This document shows, one piece after another, positions 14,684 to 35,702 of a stretch of DNA of 64,000 nt (the first letter of the stretch is position 1; every line of letters begins with the position of its first letter). This DNA comes from Candidatus Poribacteria bacterium (lineage in GTDB: Bacteria; Poribacteria; WGA-4E; JAJDTR01), in the NCBI GenBank assembly GCA_965204085.1, contig CBDBEE010000002.1, forward strand, positions 840,913-904,912, written 5' to 3'. The notes under the pieces are model-generated. The model was not told the DNA's origin. It searched no databases and was given only the letters and a program-made list of their open reading frames with translations. The position numbers and the translations under genes were made by a program.

Positions 14684-15010
14684 ACGCTGTTCGGGCGTGT
14701 AGATAGCCAACTTAGCGCCGATGTAAACTCAATTGGCGTTCTTTCTTGATGGTTAACATCGTAAGATTCGCGCGCAGCCCGAGAACTTGAAGGAGACTTG
14801 ATCCACAGAAAGTAGAATCTAATTTAAAAAAGTATCGTGTCGAAGTTTCTCTTGAAGGCAATGGATTTGTGCGGCAAATCGGAAAAACTGAGAGAAGCCT
14901 CTTTGCTTGGATTGCCAAATCCGTACAGATTGTGGAAAACTCGCACATGCCTAAGATGCGCTAATCGAGACGGAAACTAGCCGGCTGACCAAGGAGGGTA
15001 ACGCGTATCT

Positions 15011-15104
15011 ATACCGTGCGCTGTCAGAAATTGCGCTTTTCAAGATTTAAGGCTTGCTTCGCCGATTTTAGAGGCAGCACCAAGCGAACGAATATTGAAT
15101 GGGG
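15011..15104 (+). repeat. conserved 94-nt noncoding element, copy 1
   Basis: About 90% identical to 29586-29679. Both copies are in noncoding contexts. Confidence 0.6.
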
Positions 15105-15274
15105 AAACGTGCGTAGTTTCCACCTGTCGCCCCTCTGGGGCTTTGCTGTAGGTCGAATCAATGTTTCTATACACCTTCCGCCCCTCTGGGGCTACCAAGA
15201 TTTAAATGGGTCGCGACCTGGAGATCGCTCCTACAAAATAAGCACTTCTCAGCAGCGTGGAGTATAAACCTATA

Positions 15275-15688
15275 TTACTTTGCCAAGTTAGCGCAAACTA
15301 GCTCTCTATCATTCCGTACGAAAACATGCTTGGCTGCAAACGCCGGGTGTGTCCAACATACACCCCCACGTTGGTTCAGTTGGTCACGAGTAGGCTCAAT
15401 TAGTTTTGCCCGACTGATGATGTTCAACCCGTCCGGCGACAGACTCGTGATAAGTAACTCTCCACGTTCGTTGAACATCCAAACTTTATCCGAGTTTTTT
15501 ACGAAGTGAATCGTGCTCCAACGCGCCTTCGGAACTGCTGACAAATCCTCCCAGATACGCTCGCCGGTGTGAGAATCCAAACAACGCAATTCGCCATAAC
15601 TGTCTACCCCGTAGATGTAATCATCCAAGATAATTGGGGTTGAAATGATAGGTTGGGGGCTTATATACTTTAGTACCATAATCCCCAT
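15275..15688 (-). pseudogene. PQQ-like beta-propeller repeat protein, C-terminal fragment of a gene split by IS insertion
   Basis: It is continuous in frame with the 18607-19560 ORF once the 15656-18642 element and one copy of the target-site duplication are removed. That junction reads ...DGIQP|IISTPIILDD... Confidence 0.8.
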
Positions 15689-15931
15689 TGTTGCAGGATT
15701 TCAGGCAATTGAAAATTACTGCTTGCCCTTATCCCGCTTTTTTCGCTTAATCCCGAATAACGCACGGGCTACGTTCTCCGGCGTATCCGGGATGGATTCT
15801 GCGCTCCGTTTAGAACGCTCTGGAGGGGACTTCGTGTCCCGTTTTTTCTTCTTACTCATTATTCAGGATTGCTTTGCTTAGTCAGTATTCCTTCTCTATT
15901 GAACAGGGACAAAAAAAGTCAACAAAAAAAC

Positions 15932-16495
15932 TTACTCTGACGATCCACCTCTTGAGAACATTTGTTCCTTCCCATCCGACGTTGTTAATAGAATATGTCC
16001 CCCTTCGGTTTCAGAATGTATTCCCAGTATTGCCGCACCTCCCTTTTTTGATCGTGCCATGAAACTATATTTCCCATCTGAGGCAATAATACCTGACATG
16101 CTGTCTCCTTCCCCATTTGTCAGTGCTAATGACCCGCCAGTTTCACTATTAACTCCCAATGCAGCTACGCCCATTGACGCTTTTATAGCAGTTATTAGAT
16201 AAACTTCATTGGGTAAGTAAAATCCTACTGAACTATCGTTAGAATCAATTACATACATTCCGAAATCCGCATTACCTGGGTTCCCTTTTAAGAGTGGGAT
16301 ATGTTTCATCGCATCTCCCACTGAACCCAGAAGAATCATATTCCCACTGTTGTCATCAACTAGGATTCTTTTGCACTTTATAGTATCATACTCAACATTC
16401 CCTGGTATTTTTACGGCATTGATAGGAGTTAGAAACACGCCAACATAAGCCAGAATACCAAATACCACCGTGCACCTACGAACACTGCCTTTCAT
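15932..16495 (-). CDS. hypothetical secreted protein (passenger gene of the IS element)
   Basis: 187 aa with a signal peptide and Gly/Ser-rich repeated beta-like segments. No known motif. Confidence 0.5.
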   Translation of the reverse strand: MKGSVRRCTVVFGILAYVGVFLTPINAVKIPGNVEYDTIKCKRILVDDNSGNMILLGSVGDAMKHIPLLKGNPGNADFGMYVIDSNDSSVGFYLPNEVYLITAIKASMGVAALGVNSETGGSLALTNGEGDSMSGIIASDGKYSFMARSKKGGAAILGIHSETEGGHILLTTSDGKEQMFSRGGSSE

Positions 16496-16740
16496 TGTAA
16501 ATCCTCCTTGATAGGTTGAAGTGAGTTAAAACCACTGCTAAACCATTACGATCAAAATGATCTAACATCTTCAACCAAATGTCAAGGGGAATTTACAACT
16601 AGATCGATTTTTCTTGACTTATAGAGATTTCACGATATACTAATGAGGTAACGTTGTCACAAGGACAACGTTACCCTGCGGTTGTTACCAGCAACCGCTT
16701 CCTACTGTTCTCTCAATCAAATTGAGGAAAGGCTATAGTC

Positions 16741-17205
16741 ATGAAAAAGACAACAGCAGAAATTCTTTTAGAACGATCGAAATATATAATTTCAGCAGAC
16801 CTTCCAAGTTTGTCATACCAATCAAAATCAGTTACAATTGATTATGCGGCAAACGCCCTTAACCAATCTGCATGTTATTCTGGAAAACAATACCGGGAGG
16901 AGAACATTGACTTCGATCAATTGCATCACAACTCCAAGAAATTGTTTGCCCAAATTATATCCTCACAAATACAACTTGTACCATCACAAATACAACGATT
17001 ACACAATGAACTGACGCACATCAAAAACTCCCTAGATTTTTCCCAAAAGTTCAGACAACACCTTGATTATACCTTGAAAGTTCGCAAAACGTTACGCATA
17101 CATAAGCGTGATATTTTGATGTATCGGAATACGTTATCCCAAATTGCAAATGAGGCGTTACTGAAAGCCAAAGGCCTAAACCAGGCTGTTGTAAGGGGGA
17201 AGTAA
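16741..17205 (+). CDS. hypothetical protein (passenger gene of the IS element)
   Basis: 154 aa, probably alpha-helical. Its 5' region has a TTGACT-16-TATACT promoter and a perfect 12-bp hairpin at 16652-16680. Confidence 0.4.
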   Translation: MKKTTAEILLERSKYIISADLPSLSYQSKSVTIDYAANALNQSACYSGKQYREENIDFDQLHHNSKKLFAQIISSQIQLVPSQIQRLHNELTHIKNSLDFSQKFRQHLDYTLKVRKTLRIHKRDILMYRNTLSQIANEALLKAKGLNQAVVRGK

Positions 17206-17215
17206 ATTCAGTTCC

Positions 17216-18181
17216 TTAAACCGCCGGAGGATTATTCTCCGGCGGCTTTGCTGTTAGTTGTTCGTACTTCAACTGTTTCCCGACAGTGTTCTTGGCAACA
17301 TCAGCCATTTGTTTACCGGTATCCTCACGCCTAACGTTATGGCGCCCTTCAAACTCATTGACGTAACGGTGTAGGTGTTTCTTACTCATTTTGTGATACG
17401 TGCCGGTAAAGCCACGTTTCATCAATGACCAGAAACTTTCCATCCCATTGGTATGTGCTTGCTCCCGCACATATTCGCCAATGGAGTGTTTAACCGAGAG
17501 ATGCTTGCGTTGAAGCCCTTTATACGCCTTAGCTTCATCAGTATAAACCGTTGCATCTTCTCCCGTCTTATCTTCTACAAACCCCTGAAGTGTTTTACTG
17601 TCCGTGCTTTCTACCACTTCAGCAGTCACCTTTTTGGTTTCTCTGTTCTTCGCGCCGACAACGGCAACCTTCCCTACAGTACCACGACCGGCGTGTAACT
17701 TCTTACTCGCGTGCTTGTTCTTCTCTTTACCGCCAATATAGGTTTCGTCAACCTCAACTTCGCCGCCAAATGCGTTGTTAGTCGATTCCCACGCCTCCCG
17801 AATCCGGTGTGCCATGTACCAAGCGGATTTCTGGGTGATTCCCAAGTCACGGTGCAGTTTCATTGACGAAACCCCTTTGATTCCAGTGGTCATCAGGTAA
17901 ATGGCAATAGCCCATTTCTGATAGCCAATGTTGCTCCCGTGCATCACGGAGTTCGTTTTCACCGAAAACCGTTTCTTGCAGTCATTACACCTGTGAGGCA
18001 TTGTGGGGTGCTTAGTATGCTCTTTAACGTTCTCACTTTCGCAGTAAGCACAACGGATTCCGTCCTCCCACCTACACGTCTCAAACCACTGTTCCGCCGT
18101 CACGTCATCAGGGAACATTTGAAAAAGTTCCACCAATGTAATACCCTTCCTGTAATGCTGTCCTGGGGCATTCTTAGCCAT
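17216..18181 (-). CDS. IS1595-family transposase (N-terminal zinc ribbon plus DDE domain)
   Basis: Zinc-ribbon motif CAYCES...CNDCKKRF, followed by the ISXO2-like DDE transposase region (YKGL...HSIGEYV...TNGMESFWS). Confidence 0.85.
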   Translation of the reverse strand: MAKNAPGQHYRKGITLVELFQMFPDDVTAEQWFETCRWEDGIRCAYCESENVKEHTKHPTMPHRCNDCKKRFSVKTNSVMHGSNIGYQKWAIAIYLMTTGIKGVSSMKLHRDLGITQKSAWYMAHRIREAWESTNNAFGGEVEVDETYIGGKEKNKHASKKLHAGRGTVGKVAVVGAKNRETKKVTAEVVESTDSKTLQGFVEDKTGEDATVYTDEAKAYKGLQRKHLSVKHSIGEYVREQAHTNGMESFWSLMKRGFTGTYHKMSKKHLHRYVNEFEGRHNVRREDTGKQMADVAKNTVGKQLKYEQLTAKPPENNPPAV

Positions 18182-18606
18182 TTTTCTTTCTCCTTTCTAT
18201 GACATATATTATACTATTTTCGCCCAAAAGTCAACGAAAATCCAGTCATAGCAAGGGTTCAAGGGGTTTCGACGAATTTCGTAATTACCAGAATTAGTAT
18301 TGGCGAAATTAAAAAAGTTCGATATAATTTGAGCGGGGAGCAGTCCACTTACTCCCCGAAAGGAGGTATTCAACTATGAATACCTCAAAAAGTCGGTATC
18401 CCCAAACGGATACCATCCTTGAGCGAAAACGCCTTTCGCGTACCAAGTCTGTTTTAACATGGTACAACGCCCAAACGGGCGAAAAGGTGTTTTGGATGAC
18501 GGTTGAAATAACCGGATTCTTCGCTTAAACCAGTGCGGGCGTTCACCCCAAAATGGACGCCCCACTTCCCACTTTTCTCAAATTACACCGAAATCCAAAA
18601 AAACTG

Positions 18607-19560
18607 CTAAATTAAGAAAATGGTATTAAGGTATATAAGCCCCATAGGTTGAATGCCATCAGTATTCTTTTCATCGGCGCCTCGCCGCCACCATATCTCT
18701 TCAACGGCTAAACGCTCAGAGGCGACTTTGAGCATTAACGAACCCTCAAAAAAACCAGCCATGAACAGCCGGTCTTTGTAAAGCACCGGAGTCGCGACGG
18801 CGAGGATTACTCCTTTCGGCGGGAACGCGTGTACCCAGTACAACTCACCACTTTGCGGGTTTAGACCAACCACGTTATCCCCAGTCCAGCACACCAGTAC
18901 GCGTTTACCGGCTTGGTCAATCATAATGGGTGCAGCATATGAGGCGCGATCATCCAACGCTTTCCACCTTTCTTCTCCGGTGCTCCGATCAAACGCAACA
19001 ATGCAAGCGCCGGGCGACCCACCGACCTGAACTATCAGAAGGTCATTTTCTACGAGGGGAGCACTGGCAATGCCCCAGACGGGCATCTGTATGTTGTATT
19101 CGGCGTTGAGCTCCCTTTTCCAGCGCAGATCGCCGTTGGCGGCATTTAAGCAGTGTAGATGCCCCATCGTTCCGAGCGCATAGGCAAGTCCATCGTGTAC
19201 AGTAACGGAAGCTCGCGGTCCAGCCATATAACCGACATTCCTGTATTCACAATCGTAAGAAGTAGACCAAATCTTGTCGCCAGATTCCGCGTCGAAACAA
19301 TGAACCCGCTCAATCTGCTTGGGAGTTGTGACGCGATCAGTCACGAATACGCGACCGTCCACGACCGTTGGACCACTATAACCACTTGACACGGGGACAC
19401 GCCACCGAACGCTCACCTCGGGCGCATCGAATTTCTCAATGATACCGGTTTCGTTCCATACTCCGTCGCGGTTAACGCCTCGCCACTGAGGCCAATCGTC
19501 CGCAGATGTTGGCGGCGCAATGATTAAAATAACGAACAATCCGAACAGAACAATCTTCAT
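18607..19560 (-). pseudogene. PQQ-like beta-propeller repeat protein, N-terminal part with signal peptide, truncated by IS insertion
   Basis: Signal peptide and PQQ-type repeats. The reading frame runs into the IS right end. Confidence 0.8.
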
Positions 19561-25810: not shown

Positions 25811-26252
25811 AGAAAATGTCCCCTTTATGTATGGATAACCAATTTTGGTAATTGTTTAGATCAGTCCAGAACTTACGCGTCAACAGGAAATCGCGACCTG
25901 GAGATCGCTCCTACATTACGCTCAGGGATCTCTATGGGAATTCTATCGCATTCGCTATCCGCTCATTTGATCGCTCACTATCCGTTCGCTTGATGGTGTA
26001 GGAACGGGGATTAAACTGCAGCACGACGAACCAACATTCCCAAAACAGATTGATATACTCAGCACCGGTTAATTTTGGGCAATTGTGCACCGAAGGTTTG
26101 TAGGAGCGATCTCCGAATCGCGACTGTCGGGAATCGGTGGGAACTCCTCCTACCGCCTGCAAAACTCATGCTCCATTTCTTGACTCTTAAAAACGCAACT
26201 TCCAACAGCGTAGAGTATAGACTAAACAATTACCAATCGCGCATAGCCCAAC

Positions 26253-28483: not shown

Positions 28484-29585
28484 ATTGCCACCTCGTGGTT
28501 AACAGCTAGCGGTTAGTGAATCCTTCATAAGAATCACGTAATTGTTTAGTCCATCGGTCTGGATTTGCCAATCCAGACCGAGCGGGGCAGGGAACGCGCC
28601 GAGTAGGGAAGTACAATGCTAATTCCGGCTAATCGGGGCTTACATGCCCAGACCGGACGTGCAACGAACTGTAATACTACGAACCAAACGATGCACTAAA
28701 CAGTTACAGAATCATGTTGCCGTTAAAAGCGAAATCGGAAAATCGACTGGTTTCTTAGGGCTTGTTTGAAAGTTCTCGGTACGACCCAAAAACGTCATTA
28801 GGTCATCTTGAGAAATTTCATACTTTTCATACCAAATCGAGGTTTTCAGTAGACGTGGAATAAGGGCTTGACACCTTGCTATGACTGGATTTTAAGTGGT
28901 TTTGTCACTATAGCTATTTAAGCAGAGGTATGAAATCCTAGATGTTATCCAAGACAATTTCAGTTGACACATTGGCGCTATTCTCATTAGATAAGTTGGC
29001 TCTCCAAAGAGGTGCCAAAGAGGTGCTAGAATACTGAACATTTGTATTAAGACTAAAGTAACGTATTTGCTAAACGGGGAAGGGTTTCGTACACTTGTCA
29101 TGGTAGCTTAAAGCTACAATCAATCAACAACGTCTTTACCGTTTAAAATTAACGCAAGTTGACACCTAATCGTTAATAGTTGGATTTGCATTTTTCTGGG
29201 TGTTGTATCGCAGTCCCGCTCGGCTTGGATAGACATATCCAAGCCGTACCTGCATGTGTGCAGTGGATTTGTCAATCCACTGCGAGCAAGTTGAGTAGAT
29301 TTTGCTTACATTGCCCCGATTTGCGACGTATCCCATTAGACGGTCGGGCTAGAAGCCTGGGGGATTTCTATCGCGCTCCTTATTCAGTCAGTTGATCACT
29401 CATTGTTCACTCGCTTGATCCCCGCTGGGGCTTAGGCACGGGGCTTCGGAGTTTCTACACACCTTCAAGATCTCCCCTCGGTCGCGAGTTCTTATCACGA
29501 GTAGAACTTGCTTCTACAAAAGATACGCAGCAAACAGTGTTTCGACAGATGGAACTGTCTAGTCCCAAATGTAAAATCCCTAGCT

Positions 29586-29679
29586 ATACCGTACGCTGTT
29601 AGAAATTGCGCTTTTCAAGATTTAAGGTTTGCTTCGCCGATTGTAGAAACTGTGCCAAGGGAACGAATATTGAATGGGG
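29586..29679 (+). repeat. conserved 94-nt noncoding element, copy 2
   Basis: About 90% identical to 15011-15104. Confidence 0.6.
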
Positions 29680-29716
29680 TAATGTCGGCAGTGAGATCTC
29701 TATCGATCAACCGATA

Positions 29717-29800
29717 ACACTCGACATTGCGCTCCGCTGGAGCGCGGAGATTGGGCGCATCACGATTCTATTGACATTGCACTCCTCCGGAGTGCAAGAG
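29717..29800 (+). repeat. hairpin-pair module (gcgctccgctggagcgc ... ttgacat ... gcactcctccggagtgc)
   Basis: It is homologous to the two units at 63434-63806, and the hairpin stems show compensatory substitutions. Confidence 0.55.
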
Positions 29801-30379
29801 CTTGATCTCCTTATTCAGTCACTTGATTTATTCGCTGGTTTGATGGGATTTCTATCGCCTTGGGATCTCTATCGCAGTCACTGTTCGTTCCATTGATCCT
29901 ACAAAATAAGCAATTCTCAGCAGCGTGGAGTATAATGGGCTATAGAAAACAAAATTGGCTCTTCAGAGTTAAGTGTGGAAAATGAAATTATCTTGGGGCA
30001 TGTTGACATTTATGTAAGGCGTATCCATAATTCGCCGATAAGTCCCTATCGTAGGGGCGAGGTTTCCTCGCCCAACGGGTTGGGGAACCCAACCCCTACG
30101 GAAATTGCCTCAATGTAGGGGCAACCACAAGGGTTGCCCAACATACTGCCTCAAGTGAATCAATATTGGCTTAATTTTCAAATGTCAACAGAACCTAGGA
30201 CTTACGCAGTCGAGTGCTCAAATGCACCTTCGTGTAGCAAGTTCCATTCCCACACTTGACCCTGAAGAACCACAAAATTTACATTACGTGTCAAGGACGG
30301 CGTAAAACGAAATCTCCTGCCATTCCAATCCTTCTCATCCCAGTCGCCTTAGACGAAAAACTTTAATGCTAAAACGTGC

Positions 30380-31546
30380 TCAAAACCTCCCTGCACCTAT
30401 TTGGCGGAGGGCATCCCAAAACATGGCTTCCGACATTACATGTTCATCGGTGTATATTCCAAAACCGTCCGAACCCGCTTCGATCATCGCCTTCGCCGCG
30501 TCGACAGTTTTCTTCACCAGGTCTCGCACCGGTATTCCGCCGCCGCCGTTCTTCCCGAGCACGGTGCCGTAAATCTCGCATCTCTCCCCGACAACTTCTT
30601 TCACCGCGGCAATCTCTTTCTTGATTCTAGCCGAATCCACGTACCATGATCCGGTGTCGCTGTTCGGGTAGCTTAGCGGATAATGCGGATCTATAATCCA
30701 AAACCTTGGGTGTAATGCGTCAACCAACCCCTCGTCAACCCAGGTGGTCCAGTCTAACATCAGTTTGTAAGCACCGTCCGGGTCAGCCCAAACCCCTTCG
30801 GTGGCAACCGAGATTTCAACCTTTCTGCCCAGACCTGAAAGCTCCTCCCTCAGTTCTCTCATAAGTTGAGTGTAGTAGCTCGCACGCAAGCGCGTCCACG
30901 CTTTGTCGTCATTGTCAATTTTGCGCGGGTCGACTCCATGGGCTTCGGTGTAGTCTGAAATAGCGGGGGCGTCATATCCCAATGGCCACACCTCCTCGCC
31001 CTCCGCCAAAACGTGCACAAATTCCAACTGCACGCCGTCTGCACCAAATTCTCGCGAATATGTCACTAGGGCGGCTATGACATATTCTCGAACCTCGGGA
31101 TAAGCCAGAGACATGTAGCCAATGTCGTAGCCCAAAACCTGTTCCCCGACCTCCCAGTCAAGCCAGCTTCTTCCGTCTCGCCCTTTGGACATATACTCCG
31201 GATTTTCAGCCGCAAATCGGGGTATCCTGCCATCGGGAATGATGCGTCGCGGTACCGTTCGACGTGAACCCGTCCACACGCCTGCGATAGCCACAAGCGT
31301 GTACGGATGTACTTCAACACCCACTTGATGCGCCTCTTGGCAGAGATTTCGAAGCAGTTCTCGCGACTCACCGCCCGGATATTTCCCGTAGAATTCAATA
31401 TCCGCCGCCCCCGGAGGTCTGCGGCACCGTATCCACTCATGGCTTTTCAGCACCCCTTCGTAGAAGGTGGAAATGATTTGGTGTACCCCGATCTCTGCAC
31501 ATTTCGCGGGCGGCCAACTTGGGTTAACGATGGCTATATCAATCAT
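30380..31546 (-). CDS. hypothetical protein, possibly a glycoside-hydrolase-like TIM-barrel (GHL-type)
   Basis: 388 aa with no signal peptide and only weak family resemblance. Confidence 0.35.
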   Translation of the reverse strand: MIDIAIVNPSWPPAKCAEIGVHQIISTFYEGVLKSHEWIRCRRPPGAADIEFYGKYPGGESRELLRNLCQEAHQVGVEVHPYTLVAIAGVWTGSRRTVPRRIIPDGRIPRFAAENPEYMSKGRDGRSWLDWEVGEQVLGYDIGYMSLAYPEVREYVIAALVTYSREFGADGVQLEFVHVLAEGEEVWPLGYDAPAISDYTEAHGVDPRKIDNDDKAWTRLRASYYTQLMRELREELSGLGRKVEISVATEGVWADPDGAYKLMLDWTTWVDEGLVDALHPRFWIIDPHYPLSYPNSDTGSWYVDSARIKKEIAAVKEVVGERCEIYGTVLGKNGGGGIPVRDLVKKTVDAAKAMIEAGSDGFGIYTDEHVMSEAMFWDALRQIGAGRF

Positions 31547-32472: not shown

Positions 32473-32751
32473 TCATGCAGTTCGATATAGTTCAGTGGTT
32501 GCCTAGCCAAGAGATTATGTAATCGGATTGAATTAGTACGCACACGCTGTGTGCCGTCAACTGCCTTACGTCGACTAGTAGGAACAATCTCCAGGTCGCG
32601 ACCACGTCCTTACTTCATTTTAATGCAATCAAAGAGTTCGCGACCGGGAGGTCGCTCCTACCTATACTCGGGTGGTACAGTGTGGTTTACGGCACACGGC
32701 GTGTGCCTACTACTTTGAAACGATGCCATAGACTCTTAGCGAGCGAACCAT

Positions 32752-34527: not shown

Positions 34528-35702
34528 TTGTGAACGTTGCCAAAATTTGGATTATACACCGATCTGTGCACCTTGTAAAGCGATTTCAGCAGCAATCCAT
34601 CGCACCCGGTCCCCGATAACCGACAGCACACGACTATCGATTTTCGTTCGCGGTCTCCCCTTTGCGTACCAGGCTCATAGTGCTAGAATGCGTTGTTCAG
34701 CCTCTCTGTCGGAGCGACCTCCTGGTCGCGACAAAACCGAGTTTTTTCCTCGCCCGCGCAGTTCCACCTTCGGTCATCAAATCGAAGATGCAATTTCCAA
34801 GTCTTGAATATTGAATTGCTAGGGGAAACGCATCTATACCTTGCGTTGGGTAATATTGCGCTTGTTTTCGCAGCACTAACGTCTCGCGATTCGGAGATCG
34901 GAGGGATCTCAATCAGGATCTACTATGGGATAGCTATCAGGATTGGCTATGGGATCCCTATCGTCCTCGTTATTCACTCACTTGATCGCTCATTATCCAT
35001 TCGCTTGAGGGATCTCTATGGGATTTCTATCGCCCTCGTTATTCACTCGGTTGATCCTTCCTTATCCAGTCAGTTGATCCTGCCGTTTATGGGGTGTTTT
35101 GGTGATTGTCTGAATCACGGATTTTCACTGATTAAACGGATTACACGGATTACGGGATCTCTATCGCGCTCCTTATCCAGTCGCTTGATCCTTCTGTTGA
35201 GTAAAATTGAGCTTGTTTCCTCGACAATTATGGTTTTTAATACGACTTACGCGGCGCCAGCAGGTCGCGATTGGGAGATGGGATCTCTATGGTCGTATAG
35301 AGGCGATCACAATCTAACAGATTGTGGTACAGAAATCTATGATCCCACTTGATCGTGGCTGCTACTCTACCAGACGCTCGAAAACACGCAATTTTCAGCA
35401 GCGTGAAGTATAATTATAGAGGATGTCTCATGGCGGTAGAATGTACGATTAATGTTGGGTTTCACTCGAATTTTGGCACGTTCAGGCAAAGCGGGAACTC
35501 GAAAACTCCTCTAAGATTGGCGATTATTAACGAATTCCGTTCAACCCAACCTACGACTGCGATGCGATTTCCAAGTCTTGATGATTGAATTGCCTTGACG
35601 CACTTCATCACTCCTTGATAAAATGCGAACTTAACGCGCTGCTCTGGAGCAACTTGCCCATTGGGGGCGCAGTAAAATCAACGGCGAGAAAAGAGAAAAA
35701 CT
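34528..35702. repeat. 1.2-kb repeat-rich noncoding island
   Basis: It contains arrays of 12-nt GGATCTCTATCG-like units and 22-nt ...TTATCCAGTCGCTTGATCC-like units, the gatgcRatttccaagtcttga repeat (two copies), and the ttcagcagcgtgaagtataa motif. Confidence 0.5.

Follow-up and report, generated by a model that had tools for sequence, protein, structure and literature searches.

Which genes does an insertion sequence (IS) of a Candidatus Poribacteria bacterium carry besides its transposase, how would they be expressed, and do they form part of the element or are they cargo? An earlier note on the window, that is, the whole stretch of 64,000 nucleotides analysed here, had raised this question after describing two larger and two small open reading frames (ORFs) around a divergent promoter region with a hairpin, and every feature that it listed was found in place. 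In the analysis itself, one 99-aa protein cluster pointed to Poribacteria, and the genome is probably that of a sponge symbiont. Considered as a whole, the locus is probably a transporter insertion sequence (tIS) with a conserved backbone, variable slots, promoters of its own, a structured leader, an exported orphan protein (p187) and a helical protein (p154).

Positions 15656-18643 of the window represent a single IS1595-family element of 2,988 bp. It is bounded by terminal inverted repeats of 24 nt, the left one (GGGGCTTATATACTTTAGTACCAT) at 15656..15679 on the plus strand being 92% complementary to the right one at 18620..18643 on the minus strand, and it is flanked by two identical copies of the 8-bp target-site duplication ATAGGTTG (15648..15655 and 18644..18651), verified in the sequence. 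Position 15669, where the compartment had been said to start, falls within the left inverted repeat; the element begins at 15656. Repeats of the same type (GGGRMTTATATAC...) are also present in 49 related elements, delimited by repeats and duplication, which range from 1.4 to 5.3 kb with a median of 3.1 kb. On both sides lie the remains of a PQQ_2/BamB-like beta-propeller gene (Pfam PQQ_2), its 3' part at 15275..15655 on the minus strand and its 5' part at 18652-19560. Deletion of the IS and one duplication copy in silico restored an uninterrupted PQQ-like beta-propeller ORF of 433 aa, and this, together with the 8-bp duplication, means that the element transposed into the PQQ-like gene.

The transposase, a DDE enzyme of 321 aa (17216..18181, minus strand), matches Pfam PF12762 (DDE_Tnp_IS1595; 6.3e-39, 133.9 bits, cut-off 27) and NCBIfam NF033547 (transpos_IS1595; 4.6e-56, 190 bits, cut-off 75). 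For the zinc-ribbon (CxxC...CxxC) DNA-binding region of this family, its N-terminus hits PF12760 with E=0.0055 and 17.1 bits, under the cut-off of 25.4; residues 44-68 read C-AY-C ... C-ND-C, and many close relatives pass this model. Between copies, the transposase displays a dN/dS of 0.05-0.12. A candidate promoter for it, TTGACT-17-TAATAT at 18206..18234 on the minus strand, is a consensus match only, and a GC-rich, terminator-like 11-bp hairpin (17221..17245) is located between the convergent p154 and transposase genes. By its transposase type, terminal repeats and 8-bp duplication, the element belongs to the IS1595 family. A compound transposon was rejected on the strength of the one transposase gene and the one pair of repeats, and a second IS copy was not found within the window. 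Since p187 and p154, which are not transposition genes, lie between this one pair of IS ends, as the earlier note had claimed for its passengers, the element is a tIS and the flagged stretch is its passenger compartment. The passenger DNA has a GC content of 39%, compared with 50% for the window.

The closest copies were located by exact-protein look-ups; searching genomes and metagenomes with the transposase brought up no relative above 69% identity, and collections of plasmids (blastn), phages (tblastn) and viral contigs (repeat pattern) held no match to the element. Three close copies (L002, L003 and L164) were found, together with a transposase-less cassette of 1.3 kb (L165). The close copies measure 2.4-4.1 kb, which falls within the size range of passenger-bearing IS1595 members, and L003 has its own target duplication, ATTACATT. 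All three copies and the cassette share the element ends and parts of a divergent promoter module of about 200 bp; the transposase is common to three of these four, and the ORFs between the shared segments differ. Homology is interrupted at three places: the start codon of p187 (16493), the stop of the transposase (17213-17217) and a point just 5' of the start of the small basic protein p47 (15860). Judged by these comparisons, the conserved backbone is made up of the terminal repeats, the transposase, p47 and the divergent promoter module, with variable slots between them, and at least three positions accept variable inserts.

The cassette (L165:5549-6891, 1,343 bp) has 26-nt repeats at 96%, the duplication TTATTTTC and no transposase; in addition to the promoter module, it carries ORFs for a 57-aa membrane peptide, a p187 relative of 189 aa (P0009) and a frameshifted p47. 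It is a mobile insertion cassette (MIC), sharing IS ends, target duplication, passenger genes and the lack of a transposase with the IS231-derived MIC231 of Bacillus cereus (De Palmenaer et al. 2004), cited in PMC3129680. Unlike MIC231, it derives from an IS1595-type and not an IS4-family element, and it has the same promoter-hairpin module as the autonomous copies. Lacking a transposase, the cassette implies mobilisation in trans, a route by which passengers in general could be mobilised as cassettes. Passengers might also change places between copies if these recombine homologously in the conserved backbone segments. Nearest neighbours differ between the left end and the transposase (Fisher p 0.0015 to 1, depending on the pair), which is suggestive of recombination between copies.

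Resident promoters with variable ORFs downstream, and a hairpin-forming sequence near a cassette boundary, are reminiscent of integron platforms. An integron-like cassette system was, however, rejected: neither in nor beside any copy is there an integrase ORF, Pfam shows only the DDE transposase, and attI/attC-type sites are missing from the cassette boundaries, which are start and stop codons with no shared recombination site. In a further difference, the leftward promoter travels with its gene family outside a recognisable IS (L001). The element neither works like an integron nor belongs with integrons.

The backbone gene p47 (15716..15859, minus strand; from the ORF list) encodes 47 aa with 17 K/R and 6 D/E, a net charge of +11. 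It is present in all four close copies with a dN/dS of 0.13-0.29, and variation in its motif IPDTPENVARAL is concentrated at third codon positions. With a profile HMM, p47 was detected in 29 of 52 delimited related elements, in about 20 of them at 8-64 bp from the transposase-distal repeat. The very basic ORF that had been noticed is, thus, present, but it was misplaced among the cargo; this distribution marks p47 as a conserved second (accessory) gene of the IS1595 clade. Distant p47 relatives carry an RGRP motif, which we read as AT-hook-like, and p47 could be a DNA-binding transposition accessory or regulator.

Slot 3, an extra segment of about 350 bp between the transposase start and the right repeat (18270..18616, plus strand), contains a promoter-like site (18300-18328) and the 50-aa ORF (p50; 18376-18528, plus strand; ORF list). 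Both this ORF and the ribosome-binding sequence AAAGGAGG, 11 nt 5' of its ATG, were found where they had been reported. The segment occurs only in the window and L002; L003 is without it, and L164 has a 1.2-kb insert instead. Two of the four close copies, therefore, carry the 50-aa ORF, the L002 version being 92% identical. A dN/dS of 0.28 between the window and L002 comes from 8 substitutions only, and on these sequences p50 is unproven as a gene.

How the passengers are expressed can be approached through the module between p187 and p154, whose promoters are consensus matches with a transcription start predicted from sequence. On the plus strand, the TTGACT-16-TATACT site already recognised in the earlier note is confirmed at 16614..16641; this putative promoter, P_R, reads towards p154 and is conserved in L002, L164 and L165, with TATAAT or TATACT as the -10 hexamer. 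On the minus strand, a promoter-like TTGACA-17-GATCAT (P_L; leftward, 16585->16557, that is, 16557..16585), missing from that description, would serve p187 and is followed by the Shine-Dalgarno sequence AAGGAGG ahead of the gene. L001, L003, L164, L165 and L167 retain both of its hexamers (-35 and -10), with a varying spacer sequence. Across copies that are 74-95% identical, the hexamers and the spacing of both promoters are kept, in line with the proposal of a divergent promoter region. By bringing its own sigma-70-type signals, the element would have its passengers expressed at any landing site. P_L is also found ahead of the p187 homolog in L001, with no repeat or p47 within 6 kb downstream, and it may for this reason be a property of the gene family rather than of an IS platform.

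Downstream of P_R, the inverted-repeat scan recovered the described hairpin (hairpin 1) with its perfect 12-bp stem and 5-nt loop at 16647..16675 on the plus strand (16647-16658 / 16664-16675). A stem of this length is expected by chance about 0.002 times per 3 kb by our own estimate. The first base of hairpin 1 lies 0-1 nt from the predicted +1 of P_R, and the hairpin is conserved in three other elements, namely L002, L164 and L165. Over these four sequences, which effectively represent two lineages, 88.5% of the cells are paired, versus 29-48% in slid controls, and three pairs are changed on both sides, versus none in the controls, with one G-U. The three double substitutions are those of the L165 cassette, where pairing is kept, and L002 has a C-A mismatch in the sense strand. 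RNA folding predicted a second leader stem-loop, GCGGTTG-N7-CAACCGC (hairpin 2; 16678..16698, plus strand), in all four elements. L002 has A-T in place of one of its C-G pairs; L165 has an identical stem and a different loop. The leaders of the window, L002 and L164 fold with a z of about -6, and that of L165 with -2.9, where the folded stretch began inside hairpin 1.

The palindrome had been taken for an operator, and a dimeric repressor spanning +1 to +29 might indeed switch the rightward passenger operon, the repressor being p47, p154, the transposase N-terminus or a protein supplied in trans. A perfect palindrome directly 3' of the -10 hexamer occupies the classical operator position, and among the window, L002 and L164 it stands out from its surroundings by stronger conservation. 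Symmetric changes in a palindrome would look like RNA covariation, so those of the L165 half-sites could mean co-evolution with a repressor, for which the very basic p47, with the RGRP motif of its distant relatives, would be a candidate. The candidates, however, do not follow the hairpin: L165 keeps it on the same axis with a different sequence, yet its p47 is frameshifted and it has neither p154 nor a transposase; L003 lacks the hairpin despite having p47 and the transposase; and L164 has the hairpin without p154. The G-T pair of L165 would be acceptable in RNA, whereas an exact half-site would not allow it, and a second stem-loop, not palindrome-like, always lies 3' of the palindrome and co-varies. 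We, therefore, regard an operator as unlikely. A 5'-terminal RNA stem-loop is more likely, since the stem starts at the predicted +1, is followed by a second conserved stem-loop and preserves pairing through three double substitutions, and since the cassette, which has no intact gene for a cytoplasmic or DNA-binding protein, retains it.

As RNA, hairpins 1 and 2 would lie at the 5' terminus of the P_R transcript and stabilise or insulate it. The leader of the E. coli ompA mRNA has such a 5'-terminal stabilising stem-loop, and the leaders described here resemble it in having a strong stem-loop within 0-1 nt of the predicted start and further structure behind; in contrast, they are not homologous in sequence, have no Rfam match, and their stabilising role is inferred. 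A further small stem that overlaps the Shine-Dalgarno sequence may damp translation, and the L165 leader was predicted to pair with both its Shine-Dalgarno sequence and its start codon. Hairpin 1 was rejected as an intrinsic terminator: it lacks a T-run, is followed by CTGCGGTTG and is absent from the terminator scan. The arm motif GTAACGTT was likewise rejected as a repeated binding site, with four matches in the window against 1.7 expected, which is not significant. Rfam 15 returned for 15500-18800 only two sub-threshold hits at chance level, neither of them at the hairpins.

The gene in slot 1, p187 (15932..16495, minus strand; ORF list), encodes a putatively exported, Gly/Ser-rich beta-repeat protein of 187 aa. 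Its secretion, suggested before, is plausible from an N-terminus that reads by eye as a Sec signal peptide (MKGSVRR, a hydrophobic stretch and PINA|VK). The repeats are real, too: residues ~98-131 align with 142-175, an alignment that none of 200 shuffles equalled, and the mature part contains 15% Gly and 11% Ser. A word-indexed search of 5.8 billion proteins yielded one homolog, and a HMMER profile search of 1.84 billion representative proteins yielded four hits, three of them credible relatives; the fourth, the Big-like repeat protein P0008, was judged spurious. The homolog P0002 is 64% identical, with a dN/dS of 0.24 at a dS of about 1, P0009 of the cassette is 28% identical, and the homolog in L164 reached an hhalign probability of 89.6%. 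Signal peptide, cleavage motif and a Cys-Lys motif are kept across homologs of 28% identity, and p187 belongs to an orphan "FDTIxCK" family.

Five of the six known loci of this family lie inside IS1595-type elements (window, L164, L165/L166 and L167, the last with a split copy), and the p187 relatives, thus, do travel with such elements elsewhere, as the earlier note had considered. At L001, a contig end cuts the locus, which makes its IS context undecidable; the family is found almost only in IS1595-type elements. L002 contains a frameshifted stretch with what we read as a repeat theme like that of p187. An AF2 model from a four-sequence alignment reached a pLDDT of 33.6, too low for use, and a sequence-profile search of the PDB with p187 gave no match. 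Exported by Sec, p187 would act in the periplasm or at the cell surface, possibly as an accessory envelope or secreted factor, retained on the IS by a benefit to the host or the element.

The opposing gene in slot 2, p154 (16741..17205, plus strand; ORF list), encodes an apparently cytoplasmic protein of 154 aa without a membrane segment. Its description as helical agrees with the AF2 model, which is all helix at a pLDDT of 64. Foldseek of this model against the PDB returned only generic helical bundles (best E = 0.28), and a PDB sequence-profile search gave no match. The sole homolog among the 5.8 billion word-indexed proteins, P0004, is 82% identical and lies inside the related IS of L002; dN/dS for p154 amounts to 0.43-0.53. 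Nothing significant was obtained for p187, p154, p47 and p50 in Pfam, NCBIfam, PADLOC and PHROGs, including the known anti-phage defence and toxin-antitoxin models of the first three, and the two larger proteins, thus, do lack a recognisable family, as had been stated.

The company in which related elements travel brings to mind an addiction or antagonism module, in which p187, exported by Sec, would serve as a toxin or bacteriocin-like protein and its divergent partner (p154, or the 57-59-aa membrane peptides of L164 and L165) would confer immunity; in a variant, it is the small membrane peptides that would act as type I-like toxins, under the control of the structured 5' leader. Methyltransferase cargo is reported for the IS1595 family, and sister elements here are alike, carrying MTase-HNH fusions, an MvaI/BcnI endonuclease, a Dam-class MTase and a SocA/Panacea domain protein; those with restriction-modification and toxin-antitoxin genes come from sponge-symbiont genomes of several phyla. 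L164 itself has a RelE/ParE-Gp49-like ORF, albeit below curated cut-offs. In every case, a small protein is encoded divergently to the exported one, the family of the latter diverges strongly (28% identity) beside flanks that are 74-89% identical, and the pairing of the L165 leader with Shine-Dalgarno and start codon would suit the variant. Against this, p187, p154 and the small peptides match nothing in PADLOC, Pfam and NCBIfam, p154 has no membrane segment, and p187 is not diversifying relative to its closest homolog (dN/dS 0.24). The partner, moreover, is not conserved, being p154 in the window and L002, a membrane peptide in L164 and L165 and other genes in L001, so p187 is not tied to one cognate protein. 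By analogy with the sister elements, such a module is conceivable, but we consider it quite unlikely.

An alternative which the earlier note had itself named, namely that the passenger region is IS-internal filler whose ORFs arose by chance or are decaying and have no present function, is very improbable: the extremely small family, the lack of a family or fold assignment, the low structure confidence, the frameshifted p187-like stretch of L002, the split copy of L167 and a dN/dS of p154 only moderately below 1 would fit it, but the reading frames are undamaged and preceded by strong ribosome-binding sites and conserved promoters, homologs of both larger ones show purifying selection (for p187, 0.24 at a dS of about 1), signal peptide, cleavage motif and Cys-Lys motif survive at 28% identity, and a p187-family gene is retained in an independently inserted cassette.

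Passenger-bearing IS1595 subgroups were reportedly named by Siguier, Gagnevin and Chandler in 2009. tISs with passenger genes are a described category, reported to be restricted to the IS1595 and IS66 families (bioRxiv 10.1101/2021.05.26.445724; see also PMC3129680). The present element shares with the IS1595 tISs the single DDE transposase, short inverted repeats, an 8-bp duplication and unrelated genes between the repeats. It differs in that its passengers encode orphan proteins of exported, helical or small membrane type, in its conserved divergent promoter module with leader hairpins and its conserved p47-like second gene, and in the number of positions, at least three, that take variable inserts. 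The case adds a variant to the known tIS category and not a new principle.

tISs blur the line between insertion sequences and transposons, and the acquisition, expression and exchange of their passengers are poorly documented. With promoter module, second gene, variable slots and a cassette derivative, all found in genomes of sponge symbionts, the element and its relatives offer a concrete, testable case, and the p187 family may represent an envelope or secreted factor that such elements carry within a symbiosis. A bolder reading, which we hold to be rather doubtful, is that this IS1595 lineage serves as a mobile expression platform in Poribacteria-type sponge symbionts: its conserved backbone segments (repeat plus p47, promoter-hairpin module and transposase) would be recombination anchors through which copies exchange a fast-diverging, essentially IS-borne family of exported proteins along with small partners of membrane or helical type. 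The resident promoters would drive these genes, and the element would disseminate them on its own as well as in cassettes lacking a transposase. If true, the lineage would do by means of a transposon what a cassette system does, here for surface or secreted factors of a host-associated community.

The sequence does contain what the earlier note had described, namely four ORFs, a TTGACT-16-TATACT site and a perfect hairpin with a 12-bp stem and a 5-nt loop, each at its stated position, and a single mobile element encloses all of them. Its terminal inverted repeats (15656-15679 and 18620-18643; 24 nt, 92% complementary) have the direct repeat ATAGGTTG on their outer sides (15648-15655 and 18644-18651), and it encodes an IS1595-family DDE transposase of 321 aa (17216-18181, minus strand; Pfam 6.3e-39, NCBIfam 4.6e-56). 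Deleting the element and one direct-repeat copy in silico joins 15275-15655 to 18652-19560 in an uninterrupted 433-aa PQQ_2/BamB-like ORF. These features place the passengers inside the IS, as had been claimed, and the flagged stretch is the part of an IS1595-family transporter IS in which its passengers lie. The passenger DNA has a GC content of 39%, against 50% for the window. The host is probably Candidatus Poribacteria, on the thin evidence that a 99-aa RRM protein from the window belongs to a cluster at 90% identity in which the named members bear this name. A T-run with a terminator-like hairpin (15826-15850, plus strand), opposite the Lys-rich N-terminal codons of the 47-aa ORF, points inward from the left end, is kept in the close copies and could stop read-through from the flank.

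Elsewhere in the window, intergenic repeats that contain GC-rich hairpins (e.g., CGCCCCTCTGGGGC) form a dispersed family of REP- or MITE-like appearance; it occurs at 15006-15267, 29581-29935, 25891-25915, 26097-26124, 32578-32661 and 35381-35413, with identities of 88% between 15006-15110 and 29581-29685 and of 97% between 15229-15267 and 29897-29935. The ORF-poor 1.9 kb at 28484-30380 may be the remains of an old insertion by a related element; 28867-28893 matches the segment upstream of the IS transposase, 18237-18263 (27 nt, 93%), and 28635-28647 (GGGGCTTACATGC) is similar to the IS terminal repeat.

Via the transposase cluster and homologs of both passengers, three close copies were reached in ENA assemblies: L002:6706-10781 (4,076 bp), L003:168-2583 (2,416 bp, with its own duplication ATTACATT) and L164:2933-6816 (3,884 bp, transposase disrupted), their transposase genes differing by 5-7% of nucleotides from that of the window. 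Common to all copies are the left end including the 47-aa ORF (88-95% identity) and likewise the transposase and right end; L164 matches the divergent promoter region (window 16493-16697) at 89% identity, and of this region L002 retains only 16600-16679 and L003 only 16493-16587. Homology is lost at ~15860, just upstream of the start of the 47-aa ORF; at 16493, the start codon of the 187-aa ORF (p187); at ~16697, past the second hairpin; at 17213-17217, where the transposase gene stops; and at 18270. The ORFs between these breaks vary between copies. The first slot, leftward beside the 47-aa ORF, holds p187 in the window, an unrelated 122-aa lipoprotein in L003, a 122/128-aa protein in L164 whose N-terminus has the same signal peptide and "FDTIxCK", and in L002 a frameshifted stretch whose repeat theme we read as like that of p187, together with an apparent fragment of another transposase gene. 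The second slot, rightward and 3' of the hairpins, holds the 154-aa ORF (p154) in the window, a 62-aa ORF, a 219-aa secreted protein and a p154 homolog in L002, an 86-aa coiled-coil protein in L003, and a 70-aa ORF with a 59-aa membrane peptide in L164. The third, from the transposase start to the right repeat, is nearly empty in L003; in the window and in L002 it is taken up by a segment bearing the 50-aa ORF, and in L164 by a 1.2-kb insert with a RelE/ParE-Gp49-like toxin ORF (L164:3461-3787; TIGR02683 2.9e-9, PF05973 2.5e-4, both under curated cut-offs). This ORF, overlapped by a second one (L164:3745-4083), occupies the position of the window's 50-aa ORF segment between right repeat and transposase. 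Passengers may be exchanged by recombination across the backbone segments; left end and transposase have different nearest neighbours among the copies, with statistics only suggestive of recombination.

A genome scan with the transposase revealed 485 relatives, the best 80 of the 485 at 57-69% identity. Judged by record title, the relatives come overwhelmingly from metagenome-assembled genomes (MAGs), and several phyla are represented, with Chloroflexota, Latescibacterota, Alpha- and Gammaproteobacteria, Acidimicrobiia and Rhodothermales among the groups named; some of the titles or isolate codes point to sponges (Candidatus Poriferihabitans, Spongiisocius), which suggests a cross-phylum spread of this IS1595 clade within sponge microbiomes. 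Loci at 57-69% transposase identity are L004-L083 from the genome scan and L084-L163 from the metagenome scan, and some genomes harbor many copies, with at least 13 loci in one Thioclava MAG. Delimited in genome and metagenome loci by paired repeats (14-15 or more matches out of 20) and an exact 8-bp duplication, 49 distinct elements measure 1,392-5,325 bp (median 3,090; 46 of them >2 kb). Among the genes they carry are N6/N4 DNA methylases, with an HNH nuclease fused to at least one of these (the methylase cluster has 12 ORFs in 11 elements, one member being scanned), as well as an MvaI/BcnI endonuclease, a D12/Dam methylase and a SocA/Panacea domain protein.

By analogy with such cargo of sister elements, the passengers of the window might form an addiction or antagonism module, a live but weaker alternative. 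That they are noncoding IS sequence without homologs can be dismissed, as homologs exist for both and dN/dS is 0.24 for p187 (against a 64%-identical homolog, dS ~1) and 0.43-0.53 for p154; both are real genes under purifying selection. The N-terminus of p187 (15932-16495, minus strand) resembles a signal peptide and includes a conserved P-I-N-A|V site; the protein is probably exported to the envelope or medium. It shares the conserved motif (F/Y)D(T/A)IxCK and has two internal repeats (residues ~98-131 and 142-175) whose score was reached by none of 200 shuffles; its AlphaFold model is unusable (pLDDT 33.6), being noteworthy only for an all-beta secondary structure. A profile search of 1.84 billion representative proteins returned the homologs P0002 and P0009, the fragment P0010 and one further match, judged spurious. 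p154 (16741-17205, plus strand) has one homolog, in L002 (82% identity), and is predicted to be all-helical (pLDDT 64); PDB searches by structure and by sequence gave it no neighbour. Near its 3'-end, two short segments stand in swapped order (window 17125-17165 vs. L002:9256-9300) with the reading frame kept.

P0009, a distant p187 homolog (28% identity, pairwise E = 6e-11), lies within L165:5549-6891, a 1,343-bp element in which it is accompanied by a 57-aa membrane peptide homologous to that of L164, by the divergent promoter module and by a frameshifted copy of the 47-aa ORF. Because this element ends in 26-nt repeats of the window's type (96% complementary) next to a perfect 8-bp duplication (TTATTTTC), and has passengers but no transposase, it is a mobile insertion cassette descended from an IS of the window type. 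P0010, a family member split by a frameshift, adjoins a more distant IS1595 transposase in L167. This different IS1595-type element (L167:2714-5828), bounded by 23-nt repeats (GCGCAATCAGTAGTTTTTGACTT, 96%), carries the split gene of the FDTIxCK family beside another beta-repeat ORF, of 160 aa, and a coiled-coil ORF of 104 aa; its contig has an assembly gap at ~3475. Five of the six known p187-family loci lie in IS1595-type elements, with the L002 stretch counted, on our own reading, as a remnant; at the sixth, L001, the contig ends on one side and the other has no repeat or 47-aa ORF within 6 kb. The p187 family travels with IS1595-type elements, and relatives of this cargo do accompany ISs of this kind elsewhere, a point that the earlier note had raised.

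The promoters and tandem leader hairpins are conserved features, and the passengers are probably expressed from these resident promoters. Both hexamers of the leftward site, TTGACA-17-GATCAT (16585 to 16557), are kept in the window, L001, L003, L164, L165 and L167 with varying spacer sequence, and the rightward site, TTGACT-16-TATACT (16614-16641), is kept in L002, L164 and L165. The -10 hexamer of the latter ends at 16641, giving an expected start at ~16647/16648, the first base of the 12-bp stem (16647-16675). This first hairpin has one stem mismatch in L002, an altered loop in L164 and another stem sequence on the same axis in L165 (three pairs double-changed, one now G-U and two inner ones open). 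Across the four sequences, 88.5% of cells are paired vs. 29-48% with partners slid, and three pairs changed on both sides vs. none in the slid controls. A palindromic operator, the reading of the earlier note, would be expected to show the same symmetric changes if it co-evolved with its repressor, and the comparison rests on four sequences, effectively two lineages. However, the hairpin persists in the L165 cassette without an intact element-encoded cytoplasmic protein and is missing in L003 although the 47-aa ORF and transposase are present, and we therefore consider an operator less favoured than a cis-acting 5'-terminal RNA structure, which may act as a stabiliser or insulator, an established principle. 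An intrinsic terminator is ruled out by the absence of a T-run after the stem. The second stem-loop (16678-16698) follows in all four sequences, L002 having A-T in place of one C-G pair. Folding of the leaders gave z of about -6 for the window, L002 and L164 and of -2.9 for L165, where the folded stretch began inside the first hairpin; the leader hairpins had no match in Rfam.

The -10 hexamer of the leftward promoter (GATCAT, 16557-16562; wider site 16557-16569, GATCATTTTGATC) includes a GATC and does not vary among six loci, and Dam-class methylases are carried by some sister elements. Methylation-sensitive promoter control is known from IS10, and by analogy such control of this promoter is an idea. 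A 17-nt inverted repeat (88%; 16495-16511 with 16582-16598) pairs the ribosome-binding region of p187 with sequence upstream of the leftward start, so that both arms would occur only in read-through transcripts from the right. It is weakly conserved in L164 and L003 and reminiscent of how other ISs inhibit externally initiated transcripts by fold-back.

The 47-aa basic ORF (15716-15859, minus strand), previously counted as cargo, proved to be a conserved IS gene, intact in all four close copies (dN/dS 0.13-0.29), with its motif IPDTPENVARAL in 29 of 52 delimited relatives by tblastn or HMM. A basic RGRP-type stretch usually comes before the motif and PPKK..W.Y after it, and third codon positions hold almost all variation within the motif; in about 20 of the 29 relatives, it lies 8-64 bp from the transposase-distal repeat on the transposase strand. 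The protein, not covered by any curated family, probably binds DNA. The 50-aa ORF (18376-18528, plus strand) is preceded by a promoter-like site, a leader hairpin and AAAGGAGG and was found in the window and L002 only, with eight substitutions between them (dN/dS 0.28); judged by sequence, it is a candidate gene.

Overall, the observation was confirmed and its interpretation supported in part: the passengers stand as genes carried by an IS, the 47-aa ORF as cargo does not, and the operator is the less likely reading of the hairpin. Transporter ISs have been described before and are reported to be confined to the IS1595 and IS66 families (bioRxiv 10.1101/2021.05.26.445724; PMC3129680), and the present element is of this known kind, here with orphan cargo. 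Its interest is moderate; its value lies in a clean natural series of autonomous copies, a cassette derivative and variable slots for passenger carriage and expression by ISs in sponge symbionts.
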